From positions 25,402-89,401 of the IMG/VR virus record IMGVR_UViG_3300033485_000006: DNA of 64,000 nt. The stretch is one strand, 5' to 3'. The DNA is from a virus (taxonomy: Duplodnaviria; Heunggongvirae; Uroviricota; Caudoviricetes). The position numbers and the translations under genes are program-made. Below the pieces are notes generated by a model, which had not been told where the DNA came from, did no database searches, and saw nothing but the letters and a program-made list of their open reading frames with translations. Below are positions 718-49,187 of this stretch, one piece after another (within the stretch, counting starts at the first letter, position 1; every line of letters begins with the position of its first letter).

Positions 718-719
718 TT

Positions 720-2500: not shown

Positions 2501-3757
2501 TTTGATATAATCAATCTTACCTGTTGGTGTTATAGTACCTATAGTTTGCCCCCAATCTAATCCTAGAAAACCATTAGTATGACAATAACCATTGATTCCA
2601 GTAAGTGAACCATTAGTTATATACTTACCACTATTTGGCATTTCTTCTATAGAAAACTTATGGGTATGCCCTTGGAATATATTATCTGGAACTAGGCCAG
2701 TAGTTTGTCTAAAGGCCTCCTTAACTCTAAGGAATTTCATATCTCCTGAGAATCTAAACATATCCCCATGGTGCAATCCAATAGTTTTCCCATTACAATT
2801 AAATGCTAGTAAACCAGTAGTACTAATTTCAATTTTAATATTAGTGTACGCTGCTAGTTGTGCTTTAAGGATTTGATGGAATAAATATTCGAAGTTAAAT
2901 CCTTGTCCAGTTGCTTTCTTATGTTCAGATATTCTACCATGATTACCATGAATACATGGCATATAAACTTCTTCATATATACTAGACATTACAATTAAAT
3001 AACCAGATAGTATAGTTGCTAGTTCAGCTACAGCTTCACCTAGTGGCTTTGTAGTTGATTCAAGCGTATCATGTATAATACCACTGAAAATATCCCCACC
3101 AGACATAACAACTATCTTTTTCTCACCACGATAACTTCTAACAGACTCACTAAATACTCTTCCTAATCTTACCTTCGCAATGTCCCAATTAAACTCATTA
3201 GCTTGCCCGACATCTTTACGACTAATAGCTTCCTCAAAGTGTAAGTCACTTAGTAGTATAAATTGTGTGTACCCAGAGTAATTCTTTATACTTCTAGGTG
3301 GCACACCTATAGCGATATTCTGTGGTTTCAACATATTTACTTTAGCAACCGTATCATTCATGATTTGTTCATAAGTAGACTTCTCAATATCTTCATGGAG
3401 TTGAGATTTGTATTTACTAATTTGAGCCTTAGCAGTTATTAATTGTTTTTCTTTACCAACAACTTCTTTACTAAGATGGTCTAGGATACTATGAGCTTCT
3501 TCCAGTTCATTACTAATAAGACTTGTAGAAGACTCATCAAATCTTGTTAAGTATAATGAGTAATCTCCAGCACGGAACTTCTTTGGTAATCTTAAATTAA
3601 GTGTACTAGCATAAGTTCTGACTAAATACTCCTTACACCCTAGAATACTCGCCATCTCTTCTGTAGATTTCTTTTCTTTGTACACGTCAAGAAATTCATC
3701 AACCGTAACACCATATCTATTCTCTAATTCAACCTTAAGCTTCTCAACTTGTGTCAT
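2483..3757 (-). CDS. calcineurin-like metallophosphoesterase with N-terminal HTH/coiled-coil region
   Basis: C-terminal half has metallophosphatase motifs (GDIFSG, GNHG, GHTHK, GLHHGD). The N-terminus (KEYLVRTYASTLNL) is HTH-like. Confidence 0.55.
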   Translation of the reverse strand: MTQVEKLKVELENRYGVTVDEFLDVYKEKKSTEEMASILGCKEYLVRTYASTLNLRLPKKFRAGDYSLYLTRFDESSTSLISNELEEAHSILDHLSKEVVGKEKQLITAKAQISKYKSQLHEDIEKSTYEQIMNDTVAKVNMLKPQNIAIGVPPRSIKNYSGYTQFILLSDLHFEEAISRKDVGQANEFNWDIAKVRLGRVFSESVRSYRGEKKIVVMSGGDIFSGIIHDTLESTTKPLGEAVAELATILSGYLIVMSSIYEEVYMPCIHGNHGRISEHKKATGQGFNFEYLFHQILKAQLAAYTNIKIEISTTGLLAFNCNGKTIGLHHGDMFRFSGDMKFLRVKEAFRQTTGLVPDNIFQGHTHKFSIEEMPNSGKYITNGSLTGINGYCHTNGFLGLDWGQTIGTITPTGKIDYIKLVGDE

Positions 3758-3780
3758 CTTTGTCCTTTTGTTATCTATTA

Positions 3781-4656
3781 TTAATATTTAGATTTACTTA
3801 GTATGTCTATAGTAAATAGTTCAGTATTACCACTAGTTAATACCTTTGATCCCTTATATTGAAATTCCTTATACTCTCGTAATATCCTACGCTCTTCATT
3901 ATAGCACTCATTACCATTACTAAATTCTTTAGTCCACACTATATCTATAATATCTAGGTCCTCTAATGGGAATCTTTCTCTAACTGTACGATTCGTAATA
4001 CCTATCTTCCATAATGTGATACCACTAGTAGTTACTTTCAGATAATATAGTATACCAGGTTTATTTTTATTAAACCCAAATCTGGCACACTTTGGACAAC
4101 CTTTACCACTTAAATGGTTTGGTGGTGTCTGTAAGAACTCACCATGCTCTCTACAGTTAATTACTACTTTTATATCGGAGCGACTATAAATAGTGTTGCT
4201 GTAGTCGTACGTGAAATTATGTACATTATTAGCAGATAAAATAAAATCATTCTGATTAGAGAATAGCGCAGCATTAGCACACTTTTTACATCCCTGACCA
4301 TTTAAATGGTTATTTGGGGTTTGTAGAAACTCCCCGTGTAATTTGCATGTAATTATTACTTTATCTTTAGAACCAATATATTCCGTATTACTATAATCAT
4401 ATACATCACCATGTATATTAATAGCTCTAGTAATGAATTTTTCATTATTTAGAAACTGACGAACATCAGCACATTTTTTACATCCATGGCCTAATAAGTG
4501 GTGTCGTGGGTACTGAGTGAATTCCCCATGTGTTCTACATATAATAACTACTTTTTTATTCGTGGTAGTGTACTCTGTATTTTGATAATCATAAGTATCG
4601 CCATGTATACTAATAGCATTACTGATAAAAATAGCGGTATCCATTAATTTCCACAC
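3781..4656 (-). CDS. T5orf172/GIY-YIG-like domain protein with three N-terminal zinc-ribbon repeats (HEG-like)
   Basis: Three repeats of ~HG(D/E)xYDYxNTxY...HGEFxQxPxxHLxGxGCxKCA. The C-terminus (ILYYLKV...LWKIGITNRTVRERF...GNTELF) matches the T5orf172 (PF10544) pattern. Confidence 0.55.
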   Translation of the reverse strand: MWKLMDTAIFISNAISIHGDTYDYQNTEYTTTNKKVVIICRTHGEFTQYPRHHLLGHGCKKCADVRQFLNNEKFITRAINIHGDVYDYSNTEYIGSKDKVIITCKLHGEFLQTPNNHLNGQGCKKCANAALFSNQNDFILSANNVHNFTYDYSNTIYSRSDIKVVINCREHGEFLQTPPNHLSGKGCPKCARFGFNKNKPGILYYLKVTTSGITLWKIGITNRTVRERFPLEDLDIIDIVWTKEFSNGNECYNEERRILREYKEFQYKGSKVLTSGNTELFTIDILSKSKY

Positions 4657-6809: not shown

Positions 6810-7466
6810 CTAGCTTAAAATAGCTTTTTGGTATTCAATAAATGGTAATGGGTACTCTTCTCGTATACTCTCGTATAGCTCTTGTTTAAGTACATAATAT
6901 ATAGTACTACCAGTTCGTAGTATCTCCCAATCTTTATACCTAAAATTAAATGGTTTATCAATAAACTTTTTAAAGTTTAGATAAGTAATAGGTACAATAA
7001 AATTCTCTCTTCTAAACTCAGTGTACTCTATAAGTTCTTGTACACATCTCCAGCAGAGTTCCTTTGTACTTACTACACCACATAATGAACATGTAGTTGT
7101 CCATGCGCTTACTCTAGATGTAACCTTGAGTGTTACAGGAGTATACCCTAAGACTTCCTGCAGTTTATCCCTAGTAGTTTGTGGTATGATATTAGAAGCT
7201 AATAGGAATATTACATAGTACATCTCTGATGGAATTGTTAAGAAATACACGGCACATATGATATTATCTAGAGTACCTTTATATGAATACTTAGTTGGAC
7301 CAATAGATACCTTATCCTTATTATCTAGTATTGCTTTTCTAGTATCTGGATTATGAGTGTAACTAAGGACTAACTTAATATCTTTATATGTGTACCCAAG
7401 ATTAAATAGGATATTATATCGTTCTTTTATAGATGACTCTTCTAATAACTGTAGGTATTCTATCAT
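6810..7466 (-). CDS. hypothetical protein with CxxC...CWRC zinc-binding motif
   Basis: 218 aa ORF with a 4-nt overlap to the upstream gene. Contains Cys pairs CSLCG...CWRC. Confidence 0.45.
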   Translation of the reverse strand: MIEYLQLLEESSIKERYNILFNLGYTYKDIKLVLSYTHNPDTRKAILDNKDKVSIGPTKYSYKGTLDNIICAVYFLTIPSEMYYVIFLLASNIIPQTTRDKLQEVLGYTPVTLKVTSRVSAWTTTCSLCGVVSTKELCWRCVQELIEYTEFRRENFIVPITYLNFKKFIDKPFNFRYKDWEILRTGSTIYYVLKQELYESIREEYPLPFIEYQKAILS

Positions 7467-9067
7467 GCTTCTCCTATCATAACAGATGATAATCCACCTG
7501 TCTTTTCTACAACTACCTCATAGTCATAGTTAATCAAATCTAATTCTTTACCATGTGTGATAATAAATATCGACTGACCAAGACCTTTAAGGTAACTAAA
7601 TAACCTCTGCATCTCTTGTGCACCAGAAGCATCCAATGAACTAGACGCCTCATCTATTGATAGAAAGTTATCATCAGACTCTGTGATTGCTTTCATTGCG
7701 TCTAGTAAGCTAATGAGTATCAGAAGTGATAGTCTAGTCTTCTCACCATTACTTAGAGAATCTATAGGGATTTGTACTTTATCTTGCTGGATAGTTATAC
7801 ACATACCTAATTTATCATTACCAACTACAATATCAAACTGTTCAAGATTAATTAGTTCAGAGTAATGTTTAATCTTATACTGAACGACACCAAAGAATTT
7901 ATCAAGTATATTTTGTACTACCTTACCAGACTTAATCTCTTTACGGGCACTTGCAGTAAATGCTAATTGTTGTTCATAATCAGTTAAAGTTTCTTTAAGC
8001 CCACCTTTTTCTTTTGGGATTAACTCAAGGTTACTTATCTCAGAGGCAATTCCGAGGTCTTGCTGTAGCTTATTTATAGATATAGTTAATTCATCCTTAG
8101 CATCAAGGTATTTCTTAGTTAGTATACTAAGCTTACCAGATACCTTACTATACATACTCTGGGTCTGTAATAACTGACTATTCGCGTCCTCTAATTGTTT
8201 AGCCATAGCTACTAGTACTTCTTGATTTAGTAGCGTTGTGCCACACATAGAACATATACCAGATTTCATAGATGTTTTTGTCTGATGGATAGTTTGTTCT
8301 AATTTAGCTATGATATTTTGATGTTCTACTACATCATCCTTAAGTTGTACAGATAGTTCTTGGTAGCGAGCCTCAAGCATACTTAATTCATCTTTAGTCA
8401 CACTTAATGTTTCCTCTAAACTATCCTTATCAAATCTATTACTTAGTAAGAGTATCTTTTCATATTCCTCGGCATCCTTGAGATTTTTACGGGTTTCAAT
8501 AATAGATACTTCTAATTCTTTACTAACTTCTCGTAGCACTTTATCAATTTCTTGTAATTCAACTACATGAAGAATATCATTGAATAAGGTTGGTTGACTA
8601 AGGTTCTGTGTTAATTCAGTTACAGTACGGCTTGTGATATAATGTGTTACCTTAAATGTTTCAAAACCAACCCCAAGTATTTCTTCAATAACTGGTAGGC
8701 AGTTAGTAACGCCAACTGCTATTACATCATCACCACTTGTTATCTGCATTTTCTTTGGTAGTGACCTATCATTTATTATAGTATAATCTGTACTCTCACT
8801 ATTTTTTGTGTTAGTTAACTCAAGGATTATACTATAAGGTTTCTTAGAGGTTCTGTTATTCAGATGGTCTAGGTTAACCCCAGTTAAATCCCTGTTGTAT
8901 AAGCAAAGTATTAGTGCTTGTAGGAATGTACTTTTACCAGCACCATTAGATATATACTTATCATCATTATTAATACCACGGACTTTATATAGTCCAGCCT
9001 CAAATAAGATTTCAGCTGAACCTATAGTCTTATAGTTATTAATCGTTAGTTTCTTGTAATTTACCAT
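7463..9067 (-). CDS. SbcC/Rad50-like recombination ATPase (T4 gp46-like)
   Basis: N-terminal Walker A (NGAGKST), a long coiled-coil middle with a CxxC zinc hook (CSMCG), C-terminal ABC signature/Walker B (LSIDEASSSLD) and a D-loop. Confidence 0.75.
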   Translation of the reverse strand: MVNYKKLTINNYKTIGSAEILFEAGLYKVRGINNDDKYISNGAGKSTFLQALILCLYNRDLTGVNLDHLNNRTSKKPYSIILELTNTKNSESTDYTIINDRSLPKKMQITSGDDVIAVGVTNCLPVIEEILGVGFETFKVTHYITSRTVTELTQNLSQPTLFNDILHVVELQEIDKVLREVSKELEVSIIETRKNLKDAEEYEKILLLSNRFDKDSLEETLSVTKDELSMLEARYQELSVQLKDDVVEHQNIIAKLEQTIHQTKTSMKSGICSMCGTTLLNQEVLVAMAKQLEDANSQLLQTQSMYSKVSGKLSILTKKYLDAKDELTISINKLQQDLGIASEISNLELIPKEKGGLKETLTDYEQQLAFTASARKEIKSGKVVQNILDKFFGVVQYKIKHYSELINLEQFDIVVGNDKLGMCITIQQDKVQIPIDSLSNGEKTRLSLLILISLLDAMKAITESDDNFLSIDEASSSLDASGAQEMQRLFSYLKGLGQSIFIITHGKELDLINYDYEVVVEKTGGLSSVMIGEA

Positions 9068-13642: not shown

Positions 13643-14389
13643 TTAAGCTTTGGTTGCCCGTGGCTTATTCTTTGGTTTTTCTTTTACTGGAAGTTTTGAT
13701 TTAAGAATTGTTAATTGTTTCTCTAGGTATTCCACATGGTCAGCTAAATGTTCTGCCTCTGCTTCATCAACTAGTTTTTCTCGTTGTTCTTTCACAAGTG
13801 ACCAACGCGCCATAGTTTCATCTGCATCAAAGTATAGGTCACCACCTTTGATTACTTCTTCAATTTCATCGTTACTTAGAAAATACTTATAAGTTTCCTC
13901 AATTAATTTACGAGATTGTTTAAGAATAAACTCAACGGATGCTTTAGCTTCATGCATCTTACCACCACTACCAAAACTCACTGAATGTACCATAAACATA
14001 CTATGGTCTGTCATAATAATCTCATCACAGTTAAGAGCAATAATAGTAGCTGCACTCGCAGCTGTATCAGTAATAATTGCTGTGCATACTGCAGCTGTAC
14101 TATTAATACCAGTGATAATCATTTGAGCACCAGATAGGTAACCCCCACCATTATCAATAATAAAATTTATATTATCATTGTCAGTTAGTGCTAGTGCAAT
14201 TTCCATATACTCATGGTATTCACTAGAAGATTCAATACCTTCAGTTAAATAATAGTTTACTGTAATTGTTTCCCCAAAGATAACATATAGTCCTTTATTA
14301 TTACAACGTTCTCTTACCATAGCATCTGTATGGTAAGCCTCTAGTGTATTATTTACATCACCACCAAACATATTATCATGTTTACTCAT
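13643..14389 (-). CDS. ClpP/S14-family serine protease-like protein
   Basis: TDTAASAATIIALNCDE resembles the ClpP active-site Ser region (GxAASMG). A downstream His (MVHSV) and Gly-rich turns fit the ClpP fold. 248 aa. Confidence 0.55.
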   Translation of the reverse strand: MSKHDNMFGGDVNNTLEAYHTDAMVRERCNNKGLYVIFGETITVNYYLTEGIESSSEYHEYMEIALALTDNDNINFIIDNGGGYLSGAQMIITGINSTAAVCTAIITDTAASAATIIALNCDEIIMTDHSMFMVHSVSFGSGGKMHEAKASVEFILKQSRKLIEETYKYFLSNDEIEEVIKGGDLYFDADETMARWSLVKEQREKLVDEAEAEHLADHVEYLEKQLTILKSKLPVKEKPKNKPRATKA

Positions 14390-16782
14390 TTGTGTCCTTT
14401 TGAAAATATATTCTCTGCGAATTCTGTTAGTCTTCCTCTAACAACCTTAGTTAGTTTAGCACCAAATAATTTTACATTTGGGTATTCTTTCTTTAGCGCA
14501 CCAAGTAACACTGCAAGACTAGTAGTATACTTATTTAGGTACGCATTGTCAATCTGGCGACTAGACCCAATAGCGATTACCATACAACCCTCACCAATAC
14601 GTGTAAGTGCTGTTTGCGCTGAGCTAGGTGAGAAGTTTTGTGCCTCATCCATAATGATGATAGAGTCAGTTAACGTCCTTCCACGTAGTCCAAGAGTTGT
14701 TATTGGTTTGATATTATAGCTCTTCATGAGTTCTTCTAGTTTTTCCTCTACAGCTAACTCAAGGTCCTCTGCCTTCATCTTCTTATTACTGAGATGTTTT
14801 CTCACCATGATTCTCAGGGTATCATATAATGGTGCAAAGAATGGTGCGAACTTTTCATCAGAGTTATGCGTCACAATATAGTCATCTGTAAGATATAGGC
14901 CGTCCTGGTTGTCTAATGTAATACACTGCACCTCGTCATCACGAACATACTCTACACTTTTAATCATCCTTGGTCTACCAATGCGTGCTGCCTTGTAATT
15001 AGTAGCTTTACGTTGTAGCTTTGCTAAGTTAAAGTGTGGGGAGTCTATCTGAACAATATATTGAATATGGTTGCAGTTACATTGTATACCTAAAATCTCT
15101 GTTAAGCCGATTCTATCCCTTGTAGAAATTCTTGCAATACCGCCAATTGAGTGGACTAAGTCTTTAACATCACTGGATAATACACTAGATGAAGTGTAGA
15201 ATATTATCTCTCCTGATGGTCTAATAGAGCCATCAGAGTCTATCATACCCCTCAAAAGTTCCACTCTAGTATTCAGTGTAGCTACCTTGTAGCTTTCAGG
15301 TATAAATTTAGTTTCTGCTTTTTTATATTGAAGACCTAGCATAGTTAAGGCCTCTTTAAGCTTATTCGTGTGGCCTCTTCCATTAATACCTGATATAGTG
15401 TATAATACATTTTTATCTGAAGAACGGTTTATAGCGCACCCAATATCTTTTAAGGTACTAGCTATATTATTAATAATCTCTTCACTATCAGAATTTCCTA
15501 GAGCTAACCTGACGTGACTTCCTGATAAGCTACCATCTCCAATTAGTAATCCTAATAGGTATGGGTCAACTAAAGGCTCACTATAATCAAATTCTACTGG
15601 TAGGTTCTTCGGTAGTTTATGACGTAAAGCCCCCCATTTAGTAATAGTAGACATAATTTCTGCAGTGCTTCTAAGTTTTGTAACTTTATCTCTTGTAGTT
15701 TCCCATAAGTGGTCCTCAGAACATTCAGTTACGCCCCCATCGGTAGTAGTTACTCTATACACTTTTTTAGTGCCTTGTGGTGTTACATGCTTTACTGTTG
15801 AGTATTCCCCAGTATTAGTTATAACTAAGTCCCCAACAGCAATATCACCCATCACTACCCAACCAGTAGGTGTAAGTATCTTGGCAGTTAAAGGCTGTGG
15901 CCCAGGTAAAAAACCAACCTCTTCATTACGTTCTAAGTTATGAACAGTATTCCTAAGATAATATATACCAGAATACTTCTTAGCCCTTACAAGCTTCATA
16001 GCAGAAGATATAGCAGCAAAGGATTTACCTGAACCAGCCAAGGCATCACAAATAATAAAGTCATAATTCTGTGATAGTATAGCTGCTGAGTACACAAGTT
16101 GTTCTAGGTTCCGTGGGCTTGCCTCTTGCTTTCTTACTTCATCCTCATCAATAGACTCAAGTTTCCCATTGTTAACCAAGAATACCGATTGGTTACCATC
16201 AGTTGATGTGATATGGTATGCATAGTTTTCTTGCGTATGAGTTGGGTTAATACTAATAACTTCCTTAAGCTCCAACTCTTGAAACACTTCTGGGTCAACT
16301 GTTAGGTACACTAATGGTTCTATATTAATGTCCTCTTGCTCCCTAACAAAGTCTACCTTAATACCCCGAGTTAATGCAAGAAATCTACAGTTAGTATCAT
16401 TGCTAATAAATGTAACATCCATAGAGCTATTATGGATATCCTCGGCTATCTCAATAATTTTTAAGTCATTCTTCTCATCTTTATATTCTTTCTTAGAGAC
16501 TAACATAAGAGTTACTTCAAACTCGCCTGTATCATACTTAGCATGAATAGTGGTTCTATCTTCCTGTCTATCAACACTTACTAAACGTGCATCTGATAGC
16601 ATACCAGAGGTTCTCCTAGCATGAAAACCTATCTCTTCCATTAATGTTTTCTTAGAATCAAGTTCTTGTATAACAGTATCTGGAATAACTATTACCTTAC
16701 TACCAGAATTACTAAGTGTATATAGGTTAGTTGAATCTAATAGTAGTATATTTGTGTCCAACACTAGGTATTCATTTTGCAT
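14386..16782 (-). CDS. phoH: PIN-PhoH (YlaK-like) ATPase interrupted by an intein
   Basis: N-terminal PIN (LVLDTNILL), Walker A (DALAGSGKS) and PhoH motif GFLPG. An insert of about 340 aa carries two LAGLIDADG motifs and ends ...VTHN|S. The extein then resumes with DEKFAPFFAPLYD and Walker B (IIIMDEAQNF). Confidence 0.8.
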   Translation of the reverse strand: MQNEYLVLDTNILLLDSTNLYTLSNSGSKVIVIPDTVIQELDSKKTLMEEIGFHARRTSGMLSDARLVSVDRQEDRTTIHAKYDTGEFEVTLMLVSKKEYKDEKNDLKIIEIAEDIHNSSMDVTFISNDTNCRFLALTRGIKVDFVREQEDINIEPLVYLTVDPEVFQELELKEVISINPTHTQENYAYHITSTDGNQSVFLVNNGKLESIDEDEVRKQEASPRNLEQLVYSAAILSQNYDFIICDALAGSGKSFAAISSAMKLVRAKKYSGIYYLRNTVHNLERNEEVGFLPGPQPLTAKILTPTGWVVMGDIAVGDLVITNTGEYSTVKHVTPQGTKKVYRVTTTDGGVTECSEDHLWETTRDKVTKLRSTAEIMSTITKWGALRHKLPKNLPVEFDYSEPLVDPYLLGLLIGDGSLSGSHVRLALGNSDSEEIINNIASTLKDIGCAINRSSDKNVLYTISGINGRGHTNKLKEALTMLGLQYKKAETKFIPESYKVATLNTRVELLRGMIDSDGSIRPSGEIIFYTSSSVLSSDVKDLVHSIGGIARISTRDRIGLTEILGIQCNCNHIQYIVQIDSPHFNLAKLQRKATNYKAARIGRPRMIKSVEYVRDDEVQCITLDNQDGLYLTDDYIVTHNSDEKFAPFFAPLYDTLRIMVRKHLSNKKMKAEDLELAVEEKLEELMKSYNIKPITTLGLRGRTLTDSIIIMDEAQNFSPSSAQTALTRIGEGCMVIAIGSSRQIDNAYLNKYTTSLAVLLGALKKEYPNVKLFGAKLTKVVRGRLTEFAENIFSKGHK
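14863..15885 (-). mobile_element. intein with LAGLIDADG homing endonuclease domain inside the PhoH-like gene
   Basis: Hint N-block-like ILTPTGWVVMGDIAVGDLV. LAGLIDADG motifs LLGLLIGDGSL and LLRGMIDSDGSI about 100 aa apart. C-terminal splice block IVTHN followed by Ser. The upstream boundary is uncertain by a few codons. Confidence 0.7.
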
Positions 16783-23969: not shown

Positions 23970-25055
23970 TTAATCTTTTTTCTTCAAGAGATATTCATTT
24001 GAAATACACTTGAAACTCAGACCTGGAATTGTAGTTGACTTATAAACTCTACCCTCAGATACTGTACCTTTATTCATTGATGGTCCTGTAACTCTCTCTT
24101 GGAGTTCTTGGAGATTAGTACATACTTCGAATACTTTACATGAGGCACTAACAACTGGCACATGTTTAATATCGCATTTTGCAAAACTAAAATATTCCTC
24201 GAAGAATTCAGTGCGCTCTACTGGTAGTAGATATTTGCCATTAGTAATATCATAAATATCAAATACGTAGAAGTCTAACTCTTGAACTTTCTCATGGTTG
24301 GCTTGAATTCTAGGTCCAATTACCTCACCTTGAACAGCATATCCAACTGGTAGGTACTCAGCAAGTTTATACTTATTAGTCATCTTCCAGAAGTCGGAAT
24401 CATTTGGTCTTAACTCTAAGTTTCTAGAACATACTCCAAGTTTCACAGCCTCTTGTTTAAATCCTAAGGATTCTTTAATACGCTGCCATAGATTTAACTT
24501 CTGATGAATTTTAAATACAGTCATACTAGAACCATCAAGTTTCAATGTTTCTTCCCATTGATGGTCTTTGTATCGCTCATAGTAACTAGTTAAGTTTTGA
24601 ATTCGCTCTTGGTCTGTCTTAGGTAGAAAACTTGGGAATCTATCTTGAGTACTTCCAGGAGATTGCTTGGTGGATCCACCTGTAGTTTGCTCAGGTTCGT
24701 ACTTAACTACTTTAAGTATATCTGTAACATCATCTCCGAGTTTAAACCCCTGGTGAATCTCTGGGAAACTACTAAGTGGTAAGGCCAACCCTTGGCTGAT
24801 AACTTTACGCAACTTCATAGTCTTTAGGCGGTGTCTGTCATCTATAAGATACTTCTTTGGTGTACCAAGAAATGAATATCTAGGCTCATCTGGTAGCATG
24901 GAGTCAATCTCAAAGAATACACATGAGTCACCAAAATTAAACTCACCTTTCTTAACCACAACTTGCCAGTCGTCAACTAAGGCAATCTCAATAAAATCTG
25001 CACCATCAATTGGTAATAGTGCACCAATACACCTAATTGTTACTAATTTTCGCAT
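23970..25055 (-). CDS. ATP-dependent RNA ligase (Rnl1-like)
   Basis: Nucleotidyltransferase motif I KLDGSS (T4 Rnl1 has KEDGSL), a downstream EG/QGEVIG motif IV-like, and a size of 361 aa similar to T4 Rnl1. Confidence 0.5.
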   Translation of the reverse strand: MRKLVTIRCIGALLPIDGADFIEIALVDDWQVVVKKGEFNFGDSCVFFEIDSMLPDEPRYSFLGTPKKYLIDDRHRLKTMKLRKVISQGLALPLSSFPEIHQGFKLGDDVTDILKVVKYEPEQTTGGSTKQSPGSTQDRFPSFLPKTDQERIQNLTSYYERYKDHQWEETLKLDGSSMTVFKIHQKLNLWQRIKESLGFKQEAVKLGVCSRNLELRPNDSDFWKMTNKYKLAEYLPVGYAVQGEVIGPRIQANHEKVQELDFYVFDIYDITNGKYLLPVERTEFFEEYFSFAKCDIKHVPVVSASCKVFEVCTNLQELQERVTGPSMNKGTVSEGRVYKSTTIPGLSFKCISNEYLLKKKD

Positions 25056-30626: not shown

Positions 30627-31808
30627 TTAAGCTTCATTTATTAGCTCCTTTAGTAGATTTAATTTTTCTCTATAAACTTTTTGTTTGATTTGCTCAGTAG
30701 TTAATCCTGAACAATCAGTTTTGTGTTTTGTGATAGTATACCACATATTTCTAATATCTAACTGAGAATACACAAAAGGTTTCTTAATACCGTAACGACC
30801 AAGCATATCCGCATAGACTGCTTCTAATACATAACTAAGGAATTTACCATCACGAATACCGAGTAGTAACTTAAGAAATTTCTTAGAGCCTGTGTGACCA
30901 TCTATGACATTCTGCCAACGGTGATGATTTAGGGCTACATACTCAGCAACTTTAAATTCTTCTGATGAGAAACCGTAAGTAGTCCTCATGGTTTCAAATG
31001 CTGGTTTAACCCATTGTTCATCTGAGTGACCATGAAATGTACCAATAGTTTGCTTACATGGTACTTTACCAATATCATGAAATAGTGCTGCAATCTTAGC
31101 AACCTGAGTTTCGCATTGGTCAACTACAAGCATAGTATGGTTAAATACTGAACCTTCCATGTGATATGGGTTGTCATGTTCCATAGATTTCATCTTATAA
31201 ATCTCTGGGAAGAAATCATTAAGAACATTGAGTTCATCCAAGGCTCTAAAGAATACTGAGGGTTTGTCAGATGCTAATACCTTAACCAACTCTTTGTAGA
31301 CTCTTTCTTTTGGCATCGAAGTATATAATAACTTCATATCATTAGCGTATTCTTTAAGTTCATTACTAATAACCCAATGTCCACCAAGTGTACACTTAAG
31401 GCGAGCGGCCCTTAGTACTCTAAGTGGGTCTTCTTTAAATGCTTCTGACACTGGTCTAAGTACTCCTTCAGCCAAATCTTTACATCCACCATAAGGGTCT
31501 ATAAGATTGTCTTCTAAATCCATGGCTATCGCATTGATAGTTAAATCCCTACGCAATAGGTCTTGCTCTAGAGTCACATCATTAGTACCAACTACAAACT
31601 TATCTCCTGATAACCTTTCTTGCCTAGCTAGAGCGTACTCATCGCTAGACTCAGGGTGTAGAAATACTGGGAAATCTCTACCAACCTGAGTGTATCCTAG
31701 TGACAGCATTTCTTCTACTGAAGAACCAACTACAACATAGTCTAGGTCACTAGGAGTTTTGCCTAGGAGCTTATCTCGGATGGCCCCACCAACCCTATAT
31801 ACTTCCAT
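30627..31808 (-). CDS. tRNA nucleotidyltransferase (CCA-adding enzyme) with HD domain
   Basis: Pol-beta-type head motif GGAIRDKLLGKTPSDLDYVV, RDLTINA, and the HD motif FHDIGK. Confidence 0.75.
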   Translation of the reverse strand: MEVYRVGGAIRDKLLGKTPSDLDYVVVGSSVEEMLSLGYTQVGRDFPVFLHPESSDEYALARQERLSGDKFVVGTNDVTLEQDLLRRDLTINAIAMDLEDNLIDPYGGCKDLAEGVLRPVSEAFKEDPLRVLRAARLKCTLGGHWVISNELKEYANDMKLLYTSMPKERVYKELVKVLASDKPSVFFRALDELNVLNDFFPEIYKMKSMEHDNPYHMEGSVFNHTMLVVDQCETQVAKIAALFHDIGKVPCKQTIGTFHGHSDEQWVKPAFETMRTTYGFSSEEFKVAEYVALNHHRWQNVIDGHTGSKKFLKLLLGIRDGKFLSYVLEAVYADMLGRYGIKKPFVYSQLDIRNMWYTITKHKTDCSGLTTEQIKQKVYREKLNLLKELINEA

Positions 31809-32773
31809 AATATCTCCTCAAATTTCTCAGAGTTTCTTTTAACTTTCTTAAGGTAATTTCCGTCTGTCTTCTCCAATGCTGATACACTATCATATAATTC
31901 TTCAAGTTGTTTAAATGCGAATTCAGGTTTCCAGTGTTGCAATCTAATTGATAGTAGTCTTTCAGAAGTTTCTAGTGGAAAACTAATAGTACCATGTGTC
32001 ATTAACTCTTGACATTCATCAAGTACCCTGAATGCATGATACATCGACTTCCAATCTACTAGATTATTTTCCATAGAAGCCTTGGCACGAGTACCGTATT
32101 TGCTTTCCATCTCAATGAGTTTTTCCATAAACTCCGATAGGCGGATATTAGTAATAAATCTTTTATCTAACACTTGGTAATAATCTGTAGTATCATCACT
32201 AACTACTTTAAGGTTTTGGGATACTGGCAATTGGGTGATAACATCCTTAAGCTTATCATTAGTAATCATTAATCCTTGTACTAATGATTTAACTGAAAGA
32301 ATATCGTGTAACTTGTCACCCTTAACACTATACATCTTGACTTGCCCAAGAGCATAACCAAAAAATGAACGAAGCGACTCTGGATAGAAGCACTCACGGT
32401 TGTTGTAGATTTCCTTGAACAACTCATGACATCCTATTTGACAGTGTGAACCATAGGCAAACAAAGTGTCGAATGCATTAGTATCCCCTACTTGTAATAA
32501 CTTAATGAACTTATGCACTGACCATAGGGTAAAATCTTCATCATCACTTGAATTCTTAGAATCTTTACCATTTGAATTGCTAGTCCATTGGTCAATATCC
32601 TTCTTTAATACCAAGTCCTTCAACGATGGTAGAAAGATGCCTCTATAGTCTTTATCAGAGGTTGGTAACTGTGTACCATACAACGTACTTCCTGATATAT
32701 GTAGGAAGATTACTGTATATTCTGGATATAACTCTTTAAACTTTTCTAGTTGTTTCATCTGCTTCCTTATCAT
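31763..32773 (-). CDS. predicted nucleotidyltransferase (Pol-beta superfamily)
   Basis: N-terminal GSTLYGTQLPTSDKDYRGIF matches the GSxxYGxxxxxSDxDxxGV nucleotidyltransferase fold motif. Confidence 0.4.
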   Translation of the reverse strand: MIRKQMKQLEKFKELYPEYTVIFLHISGSTLYGTQLPTSDKDYRGIFLPSLKDLVLKKDIDQWTSNSNGKDSKNSSDDEDFTLWSVHKFIKLLQVGDTNAFDTLFAYGSHCQIGCHELFKEIYNNRECFYPESLRSFFGYALGQVKMYSVKGDKLHDILSVKSLVQGLMITNDKLKDVITQLPVSQNLKVVSDDTTDYYQVLDKRFITNIRLSEFMEKLIEMESKYGTRAKASMENNLVDWKSMYHAFRVLDECQELMTHGTISFPLETSERLLSIRLQHWKPEFAFKQLEELYDSVSALEKTDGNYLKKVKRNSEKFEEILWKYIGLVGPSEISS

Positions 32774-42378: not shown

Positions 42379-42589
42379 TTAATTTATACTCAAAGTTTAA
42401 ACTCTGGGTAATATCCGTATAATCTAGTACAAGTGCGCACATATCATCAAATCTTCTTATAATAACCTGATGGTGAGTGTCAAAAGTACTTTTATACACC
42501 TTGAATTCATGATTAGAGTAGACCTTAGTCATTGAAGGAGTCATAAACACCTGCTTTGACTTTGGGTCAACTAATAGTAGTGTTTTCAT
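42365..42589 (-). CDS. hypothetical protein (74 aa)
   Basis: ORF only. Confidence 0.3.
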   Translation of the reverse strand: MKTLLLVDPKSKQVFMTPSMTKVYSNHEFKVYKSTFDTHHQVIIRRFDDMCALVLDYTDITQSLNFEYKLNGSY

Positions 42590-42825
42590 TATTCTAAGCC
42601 TTTACAAGAATGAATGCATTGAGTAACTGTAGACGCTAAAGATTCAATCTGCTCAATTACATCTTCAATCGGCCAATACTCAAATGGTTGCCATACTGAA
42701 TACTCTTCAAGGTATTCAATTAATTCAGCTTCATCTAGCTCCTCCCACATAGTAGCATCCACACTATCTGACATATACTCATTAATAGCTAGCTGTAGCG
42801 CTTTTAACCTAATAGTATCACTCAT
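42589..42825 (-). CDS. acidic hypothetical protein (78 aa)
   Basis: ORF only. Confidence 0.3.
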   Translation of the reverse strand: MSDTIRLKALQLAINEYMSDSVDATMWEELDEAELIEYLEEYSVWQPFEYWPIEDVIEQIESLASTVTQCIHSCKGLE

Positions 42826-43325
42826 GATATACCCCTTGCCATGTTAATTGTCTCTTTTAGTCGCTTAAGCGTGTCACTTTCAGTTTTATCTGGTCTTAAA
42901 CCAAGGAATCTGGGATGGCTTAAAGCCCATGTGGTAGAACCACTAGCTAGGCTAAGGTCATTAAACTCAATATCGCAGTAAGTTCCTATGAGTTCCTCAC
43001 GCCTGCCATTAAAATCTTGTAGCTCATCGTCTGTGAACCCCGATGTCTGGCCTTTGACTAGACCATCGTCAGTCTCAAACATCATAGCACCAAAGGTTTG
43101 CTCTCGTGAAGTACCAACTGTACCTTCAGTAAAACCAGTAATCTTGAATGTTCCCTCAATTTGTAACTTAATCTTCAACTGTTGGTTACTAGTACAGTTA
43201 CGGAATCCAAGGGTTTTATCCTTTAATACTGAGCCTTCTAAGCCTTTCTCTAGAAAGCCCATAGTTACCTTAAGCGCCTCAGCCTCAGAGTTAACCTCAT
43301 GGGTTTCTACTATATTTATTATCAT
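42822..43325 (-). CDS. DNA ligase, C-terminal fragment (OB domain; T4 gp30-like) of a split gene
   Basis: LEKGLEGSVLKD (motif IV/V region, EGxxxK) and ALSHPRFLGLRPDK (motif VI). The N-terminus MIINIVETHEV parallels T4 ligase VILIENQVV. It has its own start with AAGGAG 6 nt upstream. Confidence 0.7.
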   Translation of the reverse strand: MIINIVETHEVNSEAEALKVTMGFLEKGLEGSVLKDKTLGFRNCTSNQQLKIKLQIEGTFKITGFTEGTVGTSREQTFGAMMFETDDGLVKGQTSGFTDDELQDFNGRREELIGTYCDIEFNDLSLASGSTTWALSHPRFLGLRPDKTESDTLKRLKETINMARGIS

Positions 43326-43374
43326 TTAAGCTCCTTTTAAGTTAATTTTAGTTATAATAGTGTAAAGGGGAATT

Positions 43375-44166
43375 ATGTTTTTAGAAAAGATACAATCAGC
43401 AAACGTAATAAAATCAGAATTTTACATTAAAAGATATATAAAATTTATTAATGCTTTTGGTGGGGTTAGATATGGTAATAACACAGAATACCATCATATA
43501 CTACCAAAAGCATACTTCAAGCAATATGAGTACAGCTCTTGGAACATAATTGAGTTAGACGTAAGAGTGCATTACGTAGCACATATGTTACTTGCTAAAG
43601 CTGTTGGTGGTAAGATGATACAAGCTTTTCAACTAATGGGCAGATTTAAAAAACATACATCTACAATGTTTGCTATGTTTAAGAAGTACGCTAAGCCTTT
43701 ATCACCAGAAGTAAATGCACAAATATCTAAATCAGTTACAAAACTATGGGAAGACCCTGAATACAGAAAAAGACAATCAGAAGCTCATAAAGGGTACGTA
43801 CAATCACAAGAAGCTAGGGATAAAGTATCTAAAGCTAATAGAGGGAAGAAAAAGCCAGAAGGTTTTAGGGTTGGTGCTAGAGCATCGGAAGAAACCAGAG
43901 AAAAATTATCAAAGGCTAAAATGGGTATTAGGCCTGGTACAAAAGTACCATTAACTCTGTATAACGCTGATGGGGTACCAGTACTTACAATTATCGGGGC
44001 AGTAGAATCTACATTACGTGAGCTAGGATTACCAAGTAGTCTGCTATCTGCGTATAGAAATGGGGGTAAAGTATATGATAACCTAAGGGGCTGTGATATA
44101 TCTAAACTAATGAATCTTGGACTGTACCAGAAGTACGCTGATTGGTATCTACAAAAAGCGATTTAA
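43375..44166 (+). CDS. HNH homing endonuclease with NUMOD3 repeats
   Basis: HNH motif (EYHHILPKAY...NIIELDVRVHYVAH). The C-terminal repeats (KRQSEAHKG, RDKVSKANRGKK, TREKLSKAKMG) match NUMOD3. It lies on the opposite strand to all neighbours, between the two ligase fragments. Confidence 0.75.
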   Translation: MFLEKIQSANVIKSEFYIKRYIKFINAFGGVRYGNNTEYHHILPKAYFKQYEYSSWNIIELDVRVHYVAHMLLAKAVGGKMIQAFQLMGRFKKHTSTMFAMFKKYAKPLSPEVNAQISKSVTKLWEDPEYRKRQSEAHKGYVQSQEARDKVSKANRGKKKPEGFRVGARASEETREKLSKAKMGIRPGTKVPLTLYNADGVPVLTIIGAVESTLRELGLPSSLLSAYRNGGKVYDNLRGCDISKLMNLGLYQKYADWYLQKAI

Positions 44167-44977
44167 GAGTGTTTAACCTATCAGCGTACGGAATAGTGCA
44201 GTTACAATTAGTGTAGTCTGATAATGGTATTATGTCCCATAATGTATAGACTATTTTATCTTCATCTAAGTGTATAAATGATAAGTCTGTATTAACAGAG
44301 TACACTGATTTAATTGAATTAAACACACCATTAGATTCAGACCTATTTAGTGTAGGAATAGTCACTTCTCCTTGGATTACTGTGTCAACCAATTCAGGAA
44401 TATCTTGTAGATATTGTAAAGACCTGAGAATGATTTCCTCACCACTTCTTGTATGCGAAGTTACACCATCACAAGTTATAATCGTAAATAATCCTAACCC
44501 ATCCATTTTTAATTGTATATATGCAGGATACTTAATATGTCTCCGAGTTTTGTCTGAAAGTAAATTACAGCGTTGATAAGGAGGCTTCACAATACTTCCT
44601 GGCCATACTTTAAGTGTCTGAGTACGACCTAGCCCGCACTTAAGGTCTCTATCAATAACTCTTCTAATAACTAGAAAGTCCTCTTGGCTTAACTGCGTTA
44701 ACTGCATAGCTAATCGTTGTGTAGCATTATTACCAGTAGCATTTCTAGTAGCTAACTCTAATTCTAAGAAATCTAATACATCAGATAATGTAATACTTGG
44801 ATTTACTGCTGGCGGTACATTAGGAAACTTTCGAATACCATAACTAAACTTAACCTTATCCAAGGTCATTACAAAGACTCTTTTAAGTAGCTCATTGCCA
44901 CTATTAGCTTTCAATAAAGCAATCTTTGTGTTTGTACCTTGGGCATTACTAATTTTATCAAGGATTTCATATATCAT
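44102..44977 (-). CDS. DNA ligase, N-terminal fragment (adenylation domain; T4 gp30-like) of a split gene
   Basis: The N-terminus MIYEILDKISNAQGTNTKIALLKANSGNELLKRVF parallels T4 ligase MILKILNEIASIGSTKQKQAILEKNKDNELLKRVY. Motif I is PAYIQLKMDGLG (T4 PAFAQLKADGAR) and motif III is TVIQGEVTI. The last approximately 20 codons overlap the HEG 3' end. Confidence 0.75.
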   Translation of the reverse strand: MIYEILDKISNAQGTNTKIALLKANSGNELLKRVFVMTLDKVKFSYGIRKFPNVPPAVNPSITLSDVLDFLELELATRNATGNNATQRLAMQLTQLSQEDFLVIRRVIDRDLKCGLGRTQTLKVWPGSIVKPPYQRCNLLSDKTRRHIKYPAYIQLKMDGLGLFTIITCDGVTSHTRSGEEIILRSLQYLQDIPELVDTVIQGEVTIPTLNRSESNGVFNSIKSVYSVNTDLSFIHLDEDKIVYTLWDIIPLSDYTNCNCTIPYADRLNTLKSLFVDTNQRTSGTVQDSLV

Positions 44978-45321
44978 TTACACAACTCCTCGTACATATA
45001 TTTGTATTCTTTAAGTTCACCTAGTTCCTTTAACAACTCTGAATTATGCTTACGCAACATCTTATTAGTGTCAACGTAAGGTGACTTAAAGCTTGTCCAA
45101 TCATCCAGTAGATTCTGAAAAATATCATCTGCAGAATACTCAAGGCCATAGTCTCTAAGTTCTCCTACTAATTTATCGTATAAAACTTGGAGTGGCTCAG
45201 CATCAAAAGCTTCTGAGATATCCTCTAGTACTTCCTCAGCGTTACGATTGGCGTACCTACGGTCATCCTGTGCGTCCATCTTATACTCTAACTCACGGTC
45301 TAATCTTTCCTCTTCAGTCAT
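44974..45321 (-). CDS. acidic hypothetical protein (115 aa)
   Basis: ORF only. Confidence 0.35.
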   Translation of the reverse strand: MTEEERLDRELEYKMDAQDDRRYANRNAEEVLEDISEAFDAEPLQVLYDKLVGELRDYGLEYSADDIFQNLLDDWTSFKSPYVDTNKMLRKHNSELLKELGELKEYKYMYEELCK

Positions 45322-46811: not shown

Positions 46812-47033
46812 TTAGACTACATCATAATCAATCAGAAATTGCATTGACTTACAATGTATTTTGTCAGTATTCAAATCGTATAGCATATCTGAAATAAGTT
46901 CATACTTCATGTAATCACTTACAACATATTTAGGTATAGCCCTGCAGTATTTATGTGATGCTATAAACATAGGGTTAGTAGTGGTGTTCCAATTACCCGT
47001 GGAATCTTTGTAAATATAATAATATTTTTCCAT
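46812..47033 (-). CDS. hypothetical protein (73 aa)
   Basis: ORF only. Confidence 0.3.
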   Translation of the reverse strand: MEKYYYIYKDSTGNWNTTTNPMFIASHKYCRAIPKYVVSDYMKYELISDMLYDLNTDKIHCKSMQFLIDYDVV

Positions 47034-47950
47034 TAGTAAGCCAATTCATCTAATGCTAGACATTCTTTACAAATCATACCCCAACCAGCATCGTATAATG
47101 GCTTGTGTTTCATACACCCATCACAAAGTACAGCTTCTGGAATTGTCTCATCAACCCATGAAGTATACTTTGGGTAACCTTTAGTCTCCGCTAAGAATTT
47201 ACGTTGCCATAAATCATCTGGGATAACTGATGATAGAAACTCACGAGTTCGTTCCATATCTTTTACTACTAGGTGCTCATTCTTAGTATGTTCATTGTAA
47301 TAACCAATAGATAAGTTACAACATGCCAAATCTGAATATTGTGAAAATGTCATAATATCAGTGAATGACCCAAAAGCATACTTATAGTTACCATACTCTT
47401 CCATGAGTCCAAATAGTTCCTCATTATCATAACCATAACTAGCACAGTCATCATACCCTTTACGGTCGAGACCAATAAAACAAGTTAAGAATGGTAGTAA
47501 CTCTTGGAATATATCAGACTTTGCGAAAGCATCGCCACCAATACCACCAACCTCTTCCTTATCAGTTAATAGATATACATAGTTATACCCAGTAGATATT
47601 AGTTTATGCATAATATATACGCCTGCTCTACAGTCAGCTCCAATCCCTTTACTGGTGTCCATATTAGTAATCATACCATTAATATCATTTAGTAATATTG
47701 GTTTGATCGAGTGAACAGTATCAGTATGCGCATTCAACAATGGTGCGAGTTCAATATACTTTGGGACATATAGTGACCATAGTTCATTGTGAACAACATT
47801 AAACTCTTCTAGATCTACCCCAGACTCAAATAAAGAAATAACATCAAGATGCGTTTTAGCCTTTAGGAAATCATGTACAGTCTTCATCTTCTTCAACCTC
47901 ATTTTCATACCATAATCCATCATGGCTATATAATCCAGCGTTATCCTCAA
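47033..47950 (-). CDS. M20/M28/M42-family metallopeptidase-like protein with C-terminal zinc ribbon
   Basis: Ordered metal-ligand motifs HTDTVH (HxD), GADCRAG (D), DKEEVGG (EE) and NEHTKNEH, plus a C-terminal CDGC...CKEC. The true start is probably an internal Met. Confidence 0.45.
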   Translation of the reverse strand: MRITLDYIAMMDYGMKMRLKKMKTVHDFLKAKTHLDVISLFESGVDLEEFNVVHNELWSLYVPKYIELAPLLNAHTDTVHSIKPILLNDINGMITNMDTSKGIGADCRAGVYIMHKLISTGYNYVYLLTDKEEVGGIGGDAFAKSDIFQELLPFLTCFIGLDRKGYDDCASYGYDNEELFGLMEEYGNYKYAFGSFTDIMTFSQYSDLACCNLSIGYYNEHTKNEHLVVKDMERTREFLSSVIPDDLWQRKFLAETKGYPKYTSWVDETIPEAVLCDGCMKHKPLYDAGWGMICKECLALDELAY

Positions 47951-49187
47951 AATAACTACCAGTATCTTCCGTTAGGAATAAATTCTTAGAAGACTCAAAG
48001 TACACCTCAGTATCAACTGTAAAGAATAAACCATCGGCAGACTCAAAATATCTCTCGGTATCCTCTGTTTGTATTAAACCAAATCTAGAGTGTACGAATT
48101 CATCTTTGTCATACACATGAACATAATCATCTGAGTAGTCGTTAATATCTGTGCAATAAACGTAACCTTTAATCTCTAGACAGTCTTCACAAAGTGAGCC
48201 GTAACTTACCTCATGGATATTATCATGTTCAAAAGCATCACAACAACGTTCACATGTAGTATACACTTCATGGAAACAATCGGAACAATACATATCATCA
48301 CCATCTGGGCCATAATATCTGTCATCTTCATTGTCTATACAATAATCACATGAACAACAAACGTGTACTGAGCCAGTACCACCATCTGTATCATCTAATT
48401 TAGTATCACAACCATCAGATTTATTATGGAAGTTACGAAGATTATCTGTAAAACTAAACGTATCTATATACGGGTAGTAGTCACTACTTTGTACTTCTGG
48501 CGGGCTTAATGATAATCTACAGTTTACTTCATTACCATTAAAGATAAAATTATCTTTATCAGAATAGTTCTGACGTTTCTTATACATGAGATTATGCTTA
48601 TTAGCATAATCCTTAAACACATTAACAATCTTATGGTTATCTGATGGATAAATCCTATCCATCAACCCTTGGCAGCCATCAGGTAATCCTGAGATGTAAC
48701 TATCAGACCAAATGATAGCACGACCATTAGTTTCCCCAACTAGTTGGAGTAGTACACCAGCACCCTCGAAGTTTGCAAAGTATTCGCCATTACCTTTCAT
48801 ACATGAGTCTACATTTGTATTATTATATCCATGTACAAGACTCTCGTCAATTTCAAACTCAACGTTATCACTTATGGAATTCGTATCGGACATTATACCA
48901 AGTATACTCTCAGCATATTCACTTCTACTACTGAGAAACGTAAAGGTTTTTAGTTGTGTCCAATATGTCTTATCATCAAATGTCTTTATACCATATACAG
49001 TACCCTCGTCATCAAATTTATACGCTAGGTACTTTGTGGAGTGTTGTTCTGTAGTATAGTAGTTATCAATAAGTGTACCACTAATTATGCCGTATTCCTC
49101 TAGCACCCCTAAATGTTTGTTATTCTCAGCTATAAAGACATAGGCCCTACCAGTAGGTAGTTCTGGCAACTTTAGTATTTCATCCAT
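47871..49187 (-). CDS. Cys-rich hypothetical protein (438 aa) with C-terminal triple repeat
   Basis: Dense Cys/Asp/Tyr cluster (CCSCDYC...CSDC...CERCC...CEDC). Three C-terminal repeats of ~(E/D)xYFE(S/D)xxxLF. Confidence 0.45.
   Translation of the reverse strand: MDEILKLPELPTGRAYVFIAENNKHLGVLEEYGIISGTLIDNYYTTEQHSTKYLAYKFDDEGTVYGIKTFDDKTYWTQLKTFTFLSSRSEYAESILGIMSDTNSISDNVEFEIDESLVHGYNNTNVDSCMKGNGEYFANFEGAGVLLQLVGETNGRAIIWSDSYISGLPDGCQGLMDRIYPSDNHKIVNVFKDYANKHNLMYKKRQNYSDKDNFIFNGNEVNCRLSLSPPEVQSSDYYPYIDTFSFTDNLRNFHNKSDGCDTKLDDTDGGTGSVHVCCSCDYCIDNEDDRYYGPDGDDMYCSDCFHEVYTTCERCCDAFEHDNIHEVSYGSLCEDCLEIKGYVYCTDINDYSDDYVHVYDKDEFVHSRFGLIQTEDTERYFESADGLFFTVDTEVYFESSKNLFLTEDTGSYFEDNAGLYSHDGLWYENEVEEDEDCT

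Follow-up and report, generated by a model that had tools for sequence, protein, structure and literature searches.

The 64,000-nt stretch of Caudoviricetes DNA analyzed here (IMG/VR record IMGVR_UViG_3300033485_000006, positions 25,402 to 89,401; hereafter the window, in whose coordinates all positions are given unless a contig is named) carries a phage T4 gp30-type DNA ligase gene broken into two open reading frames (ORFs), ligN and ligC, with a homing endonuclease gene (HEG) on the opposite strand between them. We regard it as quite probable that the pieces make up a two-subunit ligase with a composite active site, spread among phages as a homing cassette. Gp30-type ligases are single polypeptides, a rule from which this locus departs by having two ORFs, 776 nt apart, with a stop codon and a new start. 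The original prediction had proposed two ligase ORFs with an opposite-strand ORF between them, and all three are present exactly where it expected them:

ligN, 44102-44977, minus strand: N-terminal ligase subunit of 291 aa (ORF, PHROG 114 and PDB 6dt1 matches), comprising the DNA-binding domain, the first nucleotidyltransferase (NTase) lobe with motifs I, III and IIIa, a tail of 12 residues outside ligase homology and a stop codon
ligN residues 1-130, 44588-44977, minus strand: DNA-binding domain (DBD) composed of alpha helices, the "backbone" part (5wfy match)
ligN residues 131-279, 44141-44587, minus strand: first NTase lobe, the "split-associated module", with K157, E204 and W247
ligN tail QRTSGTVQDSLV plus stop codon, 44102-44140, minus strand: non-homologous to ligase by alignment, with a predicted local distance difference test (pLDDT) score below 50 at residues 280-290
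inverted repeat, 44133-44189 (arms 44133-44146 and 44176-44189), no strand: 14-bp arms with 13/14 positions paired, 29-nt loop
HEG, 43375-44166, plus strand: free-standing, 263 aa, Mob-like HNH with NUMOD3 repeats
HEG residues 37-75, 43483-43599, plus strand: HNH-type catalytic region TEYHHILPK ... VRVHYVAHMLLA, from alignments with homologues and T4 MobE
HEG residues 140-161, 43792-43857, plus strand: top-scoring NUMOD3 repeat (Pfam PF07460, two stretches)
spacer, 43326-43374, no strand: 49 nt between the divergent ligC and HEG, with the Shine-Dalgarno sequences of both and a TATAAT, read from the sequence
ligC, 42822-43325, minus strand: C-terminal ligase subunit of 167 aa (ORF, PHROG 114 and PDB ligase matches), comprising the second NTase lobe, with motifs IV (EGSVLK) and V (LKIK), and an OB domain that bears motif VI

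Anatomy of the broken ligase

Taken together, ligN and ligC amount to a complete ligase. Against the PHROG 114 profile (ATP-dependent DNA ligase), ligN covers positions 90-363 (E 1.9e-61) and ligC positions 367-512 (E 1.5e-31); the profile positions abut, and no segment is lost or duplicated. As had been proposed, ligN follows the T4 ligase from residue 1 (PDB 6dt1, E 5e-30) through motifs I and III, and motif IIIa is present as well; its DBD matches the isolated T4 DBD 5wfy (E 5.6e-23). LigC matches the C-terminal third of the T4 and Prochlorococcus-phage ligases of solved structure, the match to 6dt1 starting at chain residue 339, which is T4 residue 319. A 59-sequence alignment including T4 gp30 places both fragments contiguously on one ligase and locates the break between T4 G313/Y314 and D315. 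The first residues of ligC (MIINIVETHEV) align with T4 KVILIENQVV, so that the C fragment does resume at the next ligase residues, and motifs IV-VI are indeed found on it. The proposed end of the N fragment had to be revised: RTSG had been taken as the last conserved ligase stretch, whereas the similarity to ligases stops with ...FVDTNQ at residue 279. The tail that follows, RTSGTVQDSLV, is non-ligase and is read from the antisense strand of the HEG 3' end.

In the alignment, motif I (QLKMDG, K157 for T4 K159), motif III (E204 for T4 E217) and motif IIIa (W247 for T4 W282) fall in ligN, and motif IV (EGSVLK, T4 E344-K349), motif V (LKIK, T4 K365/K367) and motif VI (R/D, T4 R465/D467) in ligC. 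The residues kept are K157, D159, G160, E204, W247, D248, E321, G322, K326, K342, K344, R435 and D437, equivalent in the same order to T4 K159, D161, G162, E217, W282, D283, E344, G345, K349, K365, K367, R465 and D467. The break itself lies in a surface loop inside the NTase domain, where unsplit relatives have a variable linker of 3-10 residues, a site that would thus be permissive for breaking the chain.

An AlphaFold model of ligN joined end to end with ligC reached a pLDDT of 87.4 and a predicted template modeling (pTM) score of 0.75. Only two segments fall below a pLDDT of 50, namely an insertion within the chain (residues 224-236) and the tail at the junction (280-290); the junction forms a disordered loop between helix 264-281 and strand 293-296, and helices 2-124 of ligN constitute the DBD. 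The top structural match of the model is the T4 ligase 6dt1 (E 1.8e-38, template modeling score 0.76), in which residues 1-129 form the DBD, 133-367 the NTase domain and 370-487 the OB domain, with the adenine stacked between W282 of motif IIIa and I347 of motif IV and the AMP phosphate contacted by K159, K365 and K367 (PMC6212786). By position, the counterparts of W282 and K159 belong to ligN, and those of I347 and K365/K367 to ligC. Because the break cuts the NTase domain itself, any enzyme that is active has to build its nucleotide pocket from both chains. The ligN and ligC polypeptides would accordingly associate non-covalently and rebuild the NTase fold, with the ATP/AMP pocket formed across the ligN:ligC interface. 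The window ligase shares with T4 gp30 (6dt1, PMC6212786) all six motifs and the three-domain DBD-NTase-OB architecture, present here in the joined model and across PHROG 114 positions 90-512. It differs in that gp30 is an unbroken single chain, sequence identity between the two being 29%, in lacking the T4 gp45-binding loop (T4 222-247) and in being broken at the equivalent of T4 313-315.

The gap between ligN and ligC measures 776 nt (43326-44101), of which the HEG ORF fills 727 nt, so that the claim of a nearly filled gap holds; only 49 nt are non-coding, and the HEG extends another 65 nt, antisense, into the 3' end of ligN. It is the sole large plus-strand ORF within a long block of minus-strand genes. 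Its assignment to an HNH/NUMOD3 type stands on two different footings. NUMOD3 is the only Pfam match (PF07460, 3.9e-8, over its cut-off, in two stretches), whereas the HNH part rests on matches to PHROG 655 (4.4e-25) and PHROG 12434 "HNH endonuclease" (1.2e-11) and on similarity to T4 MobE (BLASTP, 30% over 118 aa, E 1e-7, across the HNH core); no curated HNH domain model in Pfam or NCBIfam and no PDB sequence matched. The elements aligned with MobE are E-x-HHI-P and H-(F/Y)-(I/V)-AH (ETHHIIPR...REHFIAH in MobE), and this catalytic motif shows no variation across three homologues and almost none across six.

Recurrence and spread of the split

At least eight other metagenomic lineages are broken at the identical alignment column and loop:

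L033 (IMG/VR): homologous HNH HEG, antisense, as in the window
L111: homologous HNH HEG without the NUMOD3 segment, antisense
L006/L007: homologous HNH HEG, sense, with overlapping stops and starts
L110: homologous HNH HEG, sense
L118 (168-kb contig): homologous HNH HEG with an in-frame stop, sense
L004/L005: unrelated T5orf172/MUG113 HEG, antisense
L010: T5orf172 HEG, 60% identical to that of L004, sense
L011: C fragment only, on a short contig; HEG not visible

The same gap thus holds members of two unrelated HEG families, HNH and T5orf172, each in both orientations. Full-length identity among the six HNH HEGs at the split site is 38-56%, with the catalytic motif kept, and the window HEG is 39-46% identical to its homologues there. 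All five C fragments in the alignment start at the same column. A seventh homologous HNH HEG lies in L109 just downstream of, and convergent with, an unsplit ligase of 442 aa, which argues that this HEG family targets ligase genes in general. As a side observation, the T5orf172-split ligase of L004 resides on a 93-kb phage-like contig that also encodes an IS605 OrfB/TnpB-like gene (9-1175, plus strand; HTH_OrfB_IS605, OrfB_IS605, Cas12f1-like_TNB).

Among the relatives, the split state is rare. When the C-fragment alignment served as query, 77 of the 78 assessable IMG/VR relatives proved to be contiguous in a single ORF, which supplies the uninterrupted ligase that the original prediction had asked for among relatives. 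Proteins of C-fragment size accounted for about 1-3 of the top 150 representatives in a library of 1.8 billion proteins, and two of these three were artefacts. Cultured phages yielded no close DNA relatives by megablast; all tblastn matches among isolates stayed below 60% identity, and the isolate ligases inspected (pv27, ACP17, POP12 and vB_KpnM_M1) were unsplit in 4/4 cases. A search of IMG/VR with the ligN sequence alone gave no match, and scans of metagenome and viral contigs with the HEG alignment returned only distant HEGs besides that of L033.

Three apparent further cases were rejected. In L012 (2197-3138, P0057) the ligase is contiguous apart from a lone in-frame stop (...EEIFKG*LAQGQEGIILKD) just before motif IV, which a sequencing error, pseudogene status or recoding of the stop codon might explain. 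L113 (628-1928) and L114 (1-1106), both P0317, carry a distant ligase frameshifted elsewhere, between motifs III and IIIa, and the 110-nt "gap" encodes ligase in another frame; the two come from different samples and are 99.7% identical, and the shift in frame could be programmed, mark a pseudogene or stem from an error common to both assemblies. In L112 (P0322), finally, the ligase is cut by the contig end. A different kind of neighbor was seen in L008/L009, where a DUF723 gene (7262-8113, minus strand) is convergent with the ligase P0003, the closest unsplit relative of the window ligase, and overlaps its 3' end by 35 nt; a second DUF723 copy lies nearby (L009 8546-9268, minus strand) and a third at the locus edge. 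The DUF723 gene is probably another HEG-like element, and the flanks of the ligase gene, too, attract mobile genes.

The most direct trace of lateral movement comes from L110 and L118, which share a single block of 1364 nt at 94.4% identity, running from motif I through the ligN stop and the whole HEG to motif V in ligC, while blastn found no DNA similarity between them outside this block. Counted per 30 columns, their amino acid identity (in %) runs along ligN from 30, 51, 28, 23, 66 and 66 to 96, 100, 96 and 96, and along ligC from 90 and 73 to 23, 30, 66 and 52. Such a block is the expected footprint of homing with co-conversion, in which the transferred unit would correspond approximately to the NTase domain with the HEG inside.

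A mosaic origin also emerges from bootstrapped neighbor-joining trees (Kimura distances, 130-170 columns). The window DBD groups with the unsplit ligases P0002-4 (84% bootstrap), its closest relatives being P0002-P0005 at 54-62% identity, and the window C fragment groups with P0002/P0004 (62% bootstrap). In the partition covering the N-terminal NTase lobe (NTase-N), however, the five split ligases with full sequences unite in a single clade (94% bootstrap), and a grouping of the window with its P000x relatives receives 0%. By trees and nearest neighbors, the DBD and C parts of these five follow five different unsplit lineages. A regression of module divergence, calibrated on 1378 unsplit pairs, places the central modules of the split ligases 17-24 identity points below expectation relative to their backbone relatives (z -2.2 to -3.3), with the window module 17-18 points below (z -2.2 to -2.5). 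The split-associated modules further have in common an insertion after SNGxxNS. From these comparisons we conclude that the split appears to be a shared, laterally spreading allele, not a private accident. The original prediction of HEG-mediated gene fission stands as far as an HEG-associated split is concerned; a fission de novo in this phage is probably not the case, as the split recurs in at least eight other lineages. With an identity of only about 45% between the window module and HEG and their counterparts elsewhere, the split would have been acquired long ago.

The monophyly of the NTase-N module and the two unrelated HEG families lying both ways round in one gap would also suit an ancient split caused by an unknown event and inherited vertically, with the HEGs as later squatters that neither caused nor spread it, and a similar ambiguity has been recognized for gene 43 of Aeromonas phages 25 and 44RR (PMC2988022). 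We consider this unlikely, although it is the alternative that survives best. Strictly vertical descent is excluded by the DBD and C parts, which fall into five unsplit lineages distinct from one another; in L110/L118, the split NTase core moved with its HEG as one 1.36-kb unit with sharp borders, and L109 carries its HEG beside a ligase that is not split. Moreover, no HEG-free split locus was found (the HEG of L118 is decayed and the L011 contig too short to judge), nor any relative with the same two ORFs, no HEG and unrelated flanks, which the original prediction had named as the finding that would speak against it. The data would still accommodate a split that arose once, with HEGs turning over in the gap afterwards.

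For the favored reading, a laterally spread two-subunit ligase, the following course of events can be proposed. The HEG would cleave HEG-less ligase alleles during co-infection, and repair would copy the HEG together with flanking NTase-coding sequence and the stop, ribosome-binding site and ATG signals, thereby leaving a two-piece gene; the gap would since have become a landing site, taken up repeatedly by HEGs of two unrelated families and in either orientation. Our judgment is evenly divided on a more far-reaching version, in which the mobile unit would be a domain-sized cassette, i.e., a split NTase core with the HEG inside, that homes into divergent ligases, turns a single-chain enzyme into a heterodimer and shuffles the catalytic domain between phage lineages. 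In that version, the gap would be a landing pad shared by both HEG families in either orientation, and in the antisense arrangement of the window, convergent transcription could couple the expression of HEG and ligC.

Signs of maintenance and probable expression of both halves

Both ORFs bear the marks of maintained genes. Of 73 alignment columns conserved to at least 90% across a set of 54 unsplit ligases, 68-71 are preserved in each of the five split ligases with full sequences, along with every catalytic residue; the unsplit ligases themselves have a median of 71 and a minimum of 48. A Shine-Dalgarno sequence lies 5-9 nt before the C-fragment ATG in 7/7 loci examined (L111 was not extractable). 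Within the block shared by L110 and L118, the ratio of non-synonymous to synonymous substitution (dN/dS) amounts to 0.10 in ligN, based on 13 synonymous vs. 6 non-synonymous differences, and to 0.15 in ligC, compared with 0.52 for the HEG; the pairs L004/L005 and L006/L007 are essentially identical and uninformative in this respect. The L118 HEG (3746-4549), located on a 168-kb phage contig from the food metagenome SRR3747713, is interrupted by a premature in-frame TAA derived from CAA (...STMW*SFQLMGR...), and in its 90%-identity cluster of 22 members several are likewise short fragments, which suggests widespread HEG decay in the L118 lineage while the split ligase stays intact. Low dN/dS in both halves next to a decaying HEG indicates that selection maintains the split ligase halves in L110/L118, and purifying selection in these relatives supports a functional two-piece enzyme.

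This selection is the strongest available argument against a dead gene, i.e., a ligase inactivated by HEG insertion whose ORFs are decaying while the phage uses host LigA or another joining enzyme. T4-type phages can do without their ligase in certain genetic backgrounds, an RNA ligase is encoded separately in the window, and its split ligase retains slightly fewer of the conserved positions than the other split ligases (68/73); still, we hold a dead gene to be improbable. Despite the A+T-rich genome, neither ORF is disrupted, no catalytic residue has been lost and overall conservation is inside the unsplit range, and the Shine-Dalgarno sequence and ATG of ligC are conserved at one aligned position. 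The two-ORF state persists in at least nine lineages diverged to 37-58% identity, and where dN/dS could be estimated it is 0.10-0.15 on both halves while the HEG decays. No further ligase-like sequence was found in the window that could represent a second copy. The RNA ligase (23970-25055, PHA02142 OB plus RNA_ligase) belongs to an RNA-repair-like gene set on the minus strand, together with a PolyA_pol-head nucleotidyltransferase (CCA-adding-like) and RlaP, an "RNA repair pathway DNA polymerase beta family" protein (ORFs 30627-31808 and 31763-32773, minus strand).

Least of all do we expect that a single chain is restored by a group I/II intron, a split intein or other recoding: introns and inteins are common HEG homes, a FelixO1-like ligase fractured by an HEG with split inteins is known from metagenomes (PMC2677866) and the PhoH gene of this phage holds a LAGLIDADG intein-like insert, but no Rfam family is found at E<=10, only 49 nt of the gap lie outside an HEG that is itself antisense, the 12 and 0 extra residues at the junction are far too few for intein halves, and stops and starts overlap in the sense-type relatives. 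For the intron, cmscan of 42500-45300 against Rfam at this threshold returned three chance snoRNA hits only, and the 49 nt uncovered by the HEG ORF leave no room for a ribozyme core, as the original prediction had argued. For the intein, the Pfam scan gave no intein domain, and the reading as a split-intein "fractured gene" was rejected because ligN ends 12 residues past the homology and ligC begins right at it. In the sense-type relatives, the ligN stop overlaps the HEG start and the HEG stop the ligC start, which leaves no intron boundaries.

The insert mentioned above interrupts the PhoH domain of a 798-aa PIN_4 plus PhoH-like ATPase ORF (14386-16782, minus strand) at about residues 299-641. 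It contains a LAGLIDADG_3 domain and also matches PHROG terminase, primase and helicase families. Matches to such families typically reflect shared inteins, and the insert is probably an intein with a LAGLIDADG homing endonuclease, i.e., a second kind of selfish element in this phage.

Translation signals for ligC and the HEG are present in the spacer, and ligN likewise has a start codon and ribosome-binding site to itself. The ribosome-binding site and ATG that had been ascribed to ligC are both there, the AAGGAG (43336-43331, minus strand) standing 5 nt upstream of the ATG, and the HEG is preceded by a TATAAT (43353-43358, plus strand) and a Shine-Dalgarno sequence AAAGGGG (43364-43370, plus strand). 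No full sigma-70 promoter match was found in the spacer, promoter-like hits being no commoner than in shuffled sequences, and a scan of the locus gave no terminator-like site. Transcription of ligC would probably occur by read-through from ligN, antisense to the HEG. The inverted repeat lies across the point where ligN and the HEG converge at their 3' ends, with the HEG stop codon in its loop; it folds at -20.6 kcal/mol (z -3.2, with none of 200 shuffles as stable), one arm encoding PYADR of the ligase and the other, on the opposite strand, KYADW of the HEG. Comparable hairpins occur at the equivalent junction in L004 (z -3.2), L109 (-2.2) and L111 (-1.9), and there is none in L033.

Several points weigh against a two-subunit ligase spread by homing in the case of the window itself. 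Selection and mobility are demonstrated in relatives and not in the window genome or its lineage, and every homologue of the window module and HEG is at most about 50% identical at the amino acid level. The module is the most divergent of the five, with 43-47% identity to the others vs. 43% to the best unsplit ligase, and its conserved-position count is the lowest of the split set. The clustering of the NTase-N modules could partly reflect parallel adaptation after splitting, and the tree method, neighbor-joining on short partitions, sets a limit of its own. Assembly of a ligN:ligC heterodimer and its nick-sealing activity are predicted from sequence, and the HEG cleavage site is predicted to lie in or near the co-converted NTase-coding region. 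In addition, the RNA ligase together with host LigA could buffer the loss of a phage ligase.

With regard to its genomic setting, the window belongs to a large, T4-like phage encoding rIIA, rIIB, a family-B DNA polymerase, NrdA/NrdB and an SbcC/gp46-like protein. Also on the minus strand lie a 305-aa ORF (47033-47950) without Pfam match and a 438-aa ORF (47871-49187) without Pfam or PHROG match.

The split ligase among genes-in-pieces

The mechanism is of the known "genes-in-pieces" kind and not conceptually new: an HEG lies between the halves of a gene that is contiguous in relatives, neither intron nor intein is present, and the downstream half has initiation signals of its own. Mobility of the HEG with co-conversion of its flanks, the other hallmark, is seen in the relatives (L110/L118 block, mosaic phylogeny) and is not demonstrable for the window. 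The closest precedent is the ribonucleotide reductase of Aeromonas phage Aeh1, encoded as nrdA-a/mobE/nrdA-b (Friedrich et al., 2007, as summarized in PMC2988022). There as well, a free-standing HNH HEG of the Mob family sits in a critical region of an essential gene of nucleotide or DNA metabolism, without intron or intein, and two separately translated polypeptides need reassembly, as they presumably do here. A further parallel is that mobE lies between nrdA and nrdB in T4 and inside nrdA in Aeh1 (PMC2988022), much as the L109 HEG stands beside an intact ligase. Apart from the host gene, NrdA in one case and a gp30-type DNA ligase in the other, the systems differ in that the window HEG is antisense to its host gene, that the ligase site is held by two HEG families in both orientations and in many lineages, and that lateral transfer of an HEG with the flanking catalytic core is directly visible at the ligase (L110/L118). 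Activity of the split enzyme was demonstrated for Aeh1 and is predicted for the ligase.

Other T4-like replication enzymes are likewise divided into two cistrons at an HEG insertion, namely the T4 gene 39/60 topoisomerase with mobA and gene 43 of phage 25 (43A/43B) with a seg-like HEG, the gene 43 subunits being active and co-purifying (PMC2988022). These are different enzymes, and a causal role of the HEG in dividing gene 43 is uncertain, whereas here the HEG and the split core travel together. Yet another genes-in-pieces case is nrdD in FelixO1-like phages (PMC4837284). Among ligases, the nearest likeness is the FelixO1-like DNA ligase locus, which belongs to the fractured genes that combine split inteins with a free-standing HEG (Dassa et al., 2009, PMC2677866) and in which a phage ligase is likewise found in metagenomes as two ORFs with an HEG between them. 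At those loci the split-intein halves re-ligate the protein, and the ligase lineage and HEG families are different; as intein halves are missing here, the extra residues numbering 12 and 0, the enzyme would have to act as a heterodimer held together non-covalently. A full-text search brought up no earlier report of a gp30-type ATP-dependent ligase split without an intein, though its coverage was incomplete and this is no proof of absence. The ligase of T5 is NAD+-dependent (LigA type) and stands on a different superfamily branch, presumably with a different break point. In T5-like phages, the DNA ligase has also been annotated as two adjacent ORFs (AKFV33 ORF119/ORF120, PMC3326045), and in this the two cases are alike.

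What is unusual about the gp30-type locus is the presence of two HEG families in both orientations at one site, a series of HEG decay and a co-conversion tract the size of a domain. T4-type DNA ligase is an essential replication enzyme and among the most widely used laboratory reagents. In this context, a break inside the adenylation domain offers an evolution-tested split site for protein-complementation or conditional-ligation designs, and the split ligase a direct way to ask how the NTase fold reassembles from two chains. So far, genes-in-pieces have been known as a handful of single cases (nrdA, gene 39/60, gene 43), to which at least nine lineages are added here, in a series that spans two HEG families, both orientations, a decayed HEG and an HEG beside an intact gene. 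A single site thereby lets the steps of homing and of HEG turnover be compared directly with one another, and the 1.36-kb block of L110/L118 indicates that homing may move a whole catalytic domain between otherwise unrelated alleles. The locus thus represents a clean natural experiment, run in multiple lineages, on an enzyme of wide practical importance.

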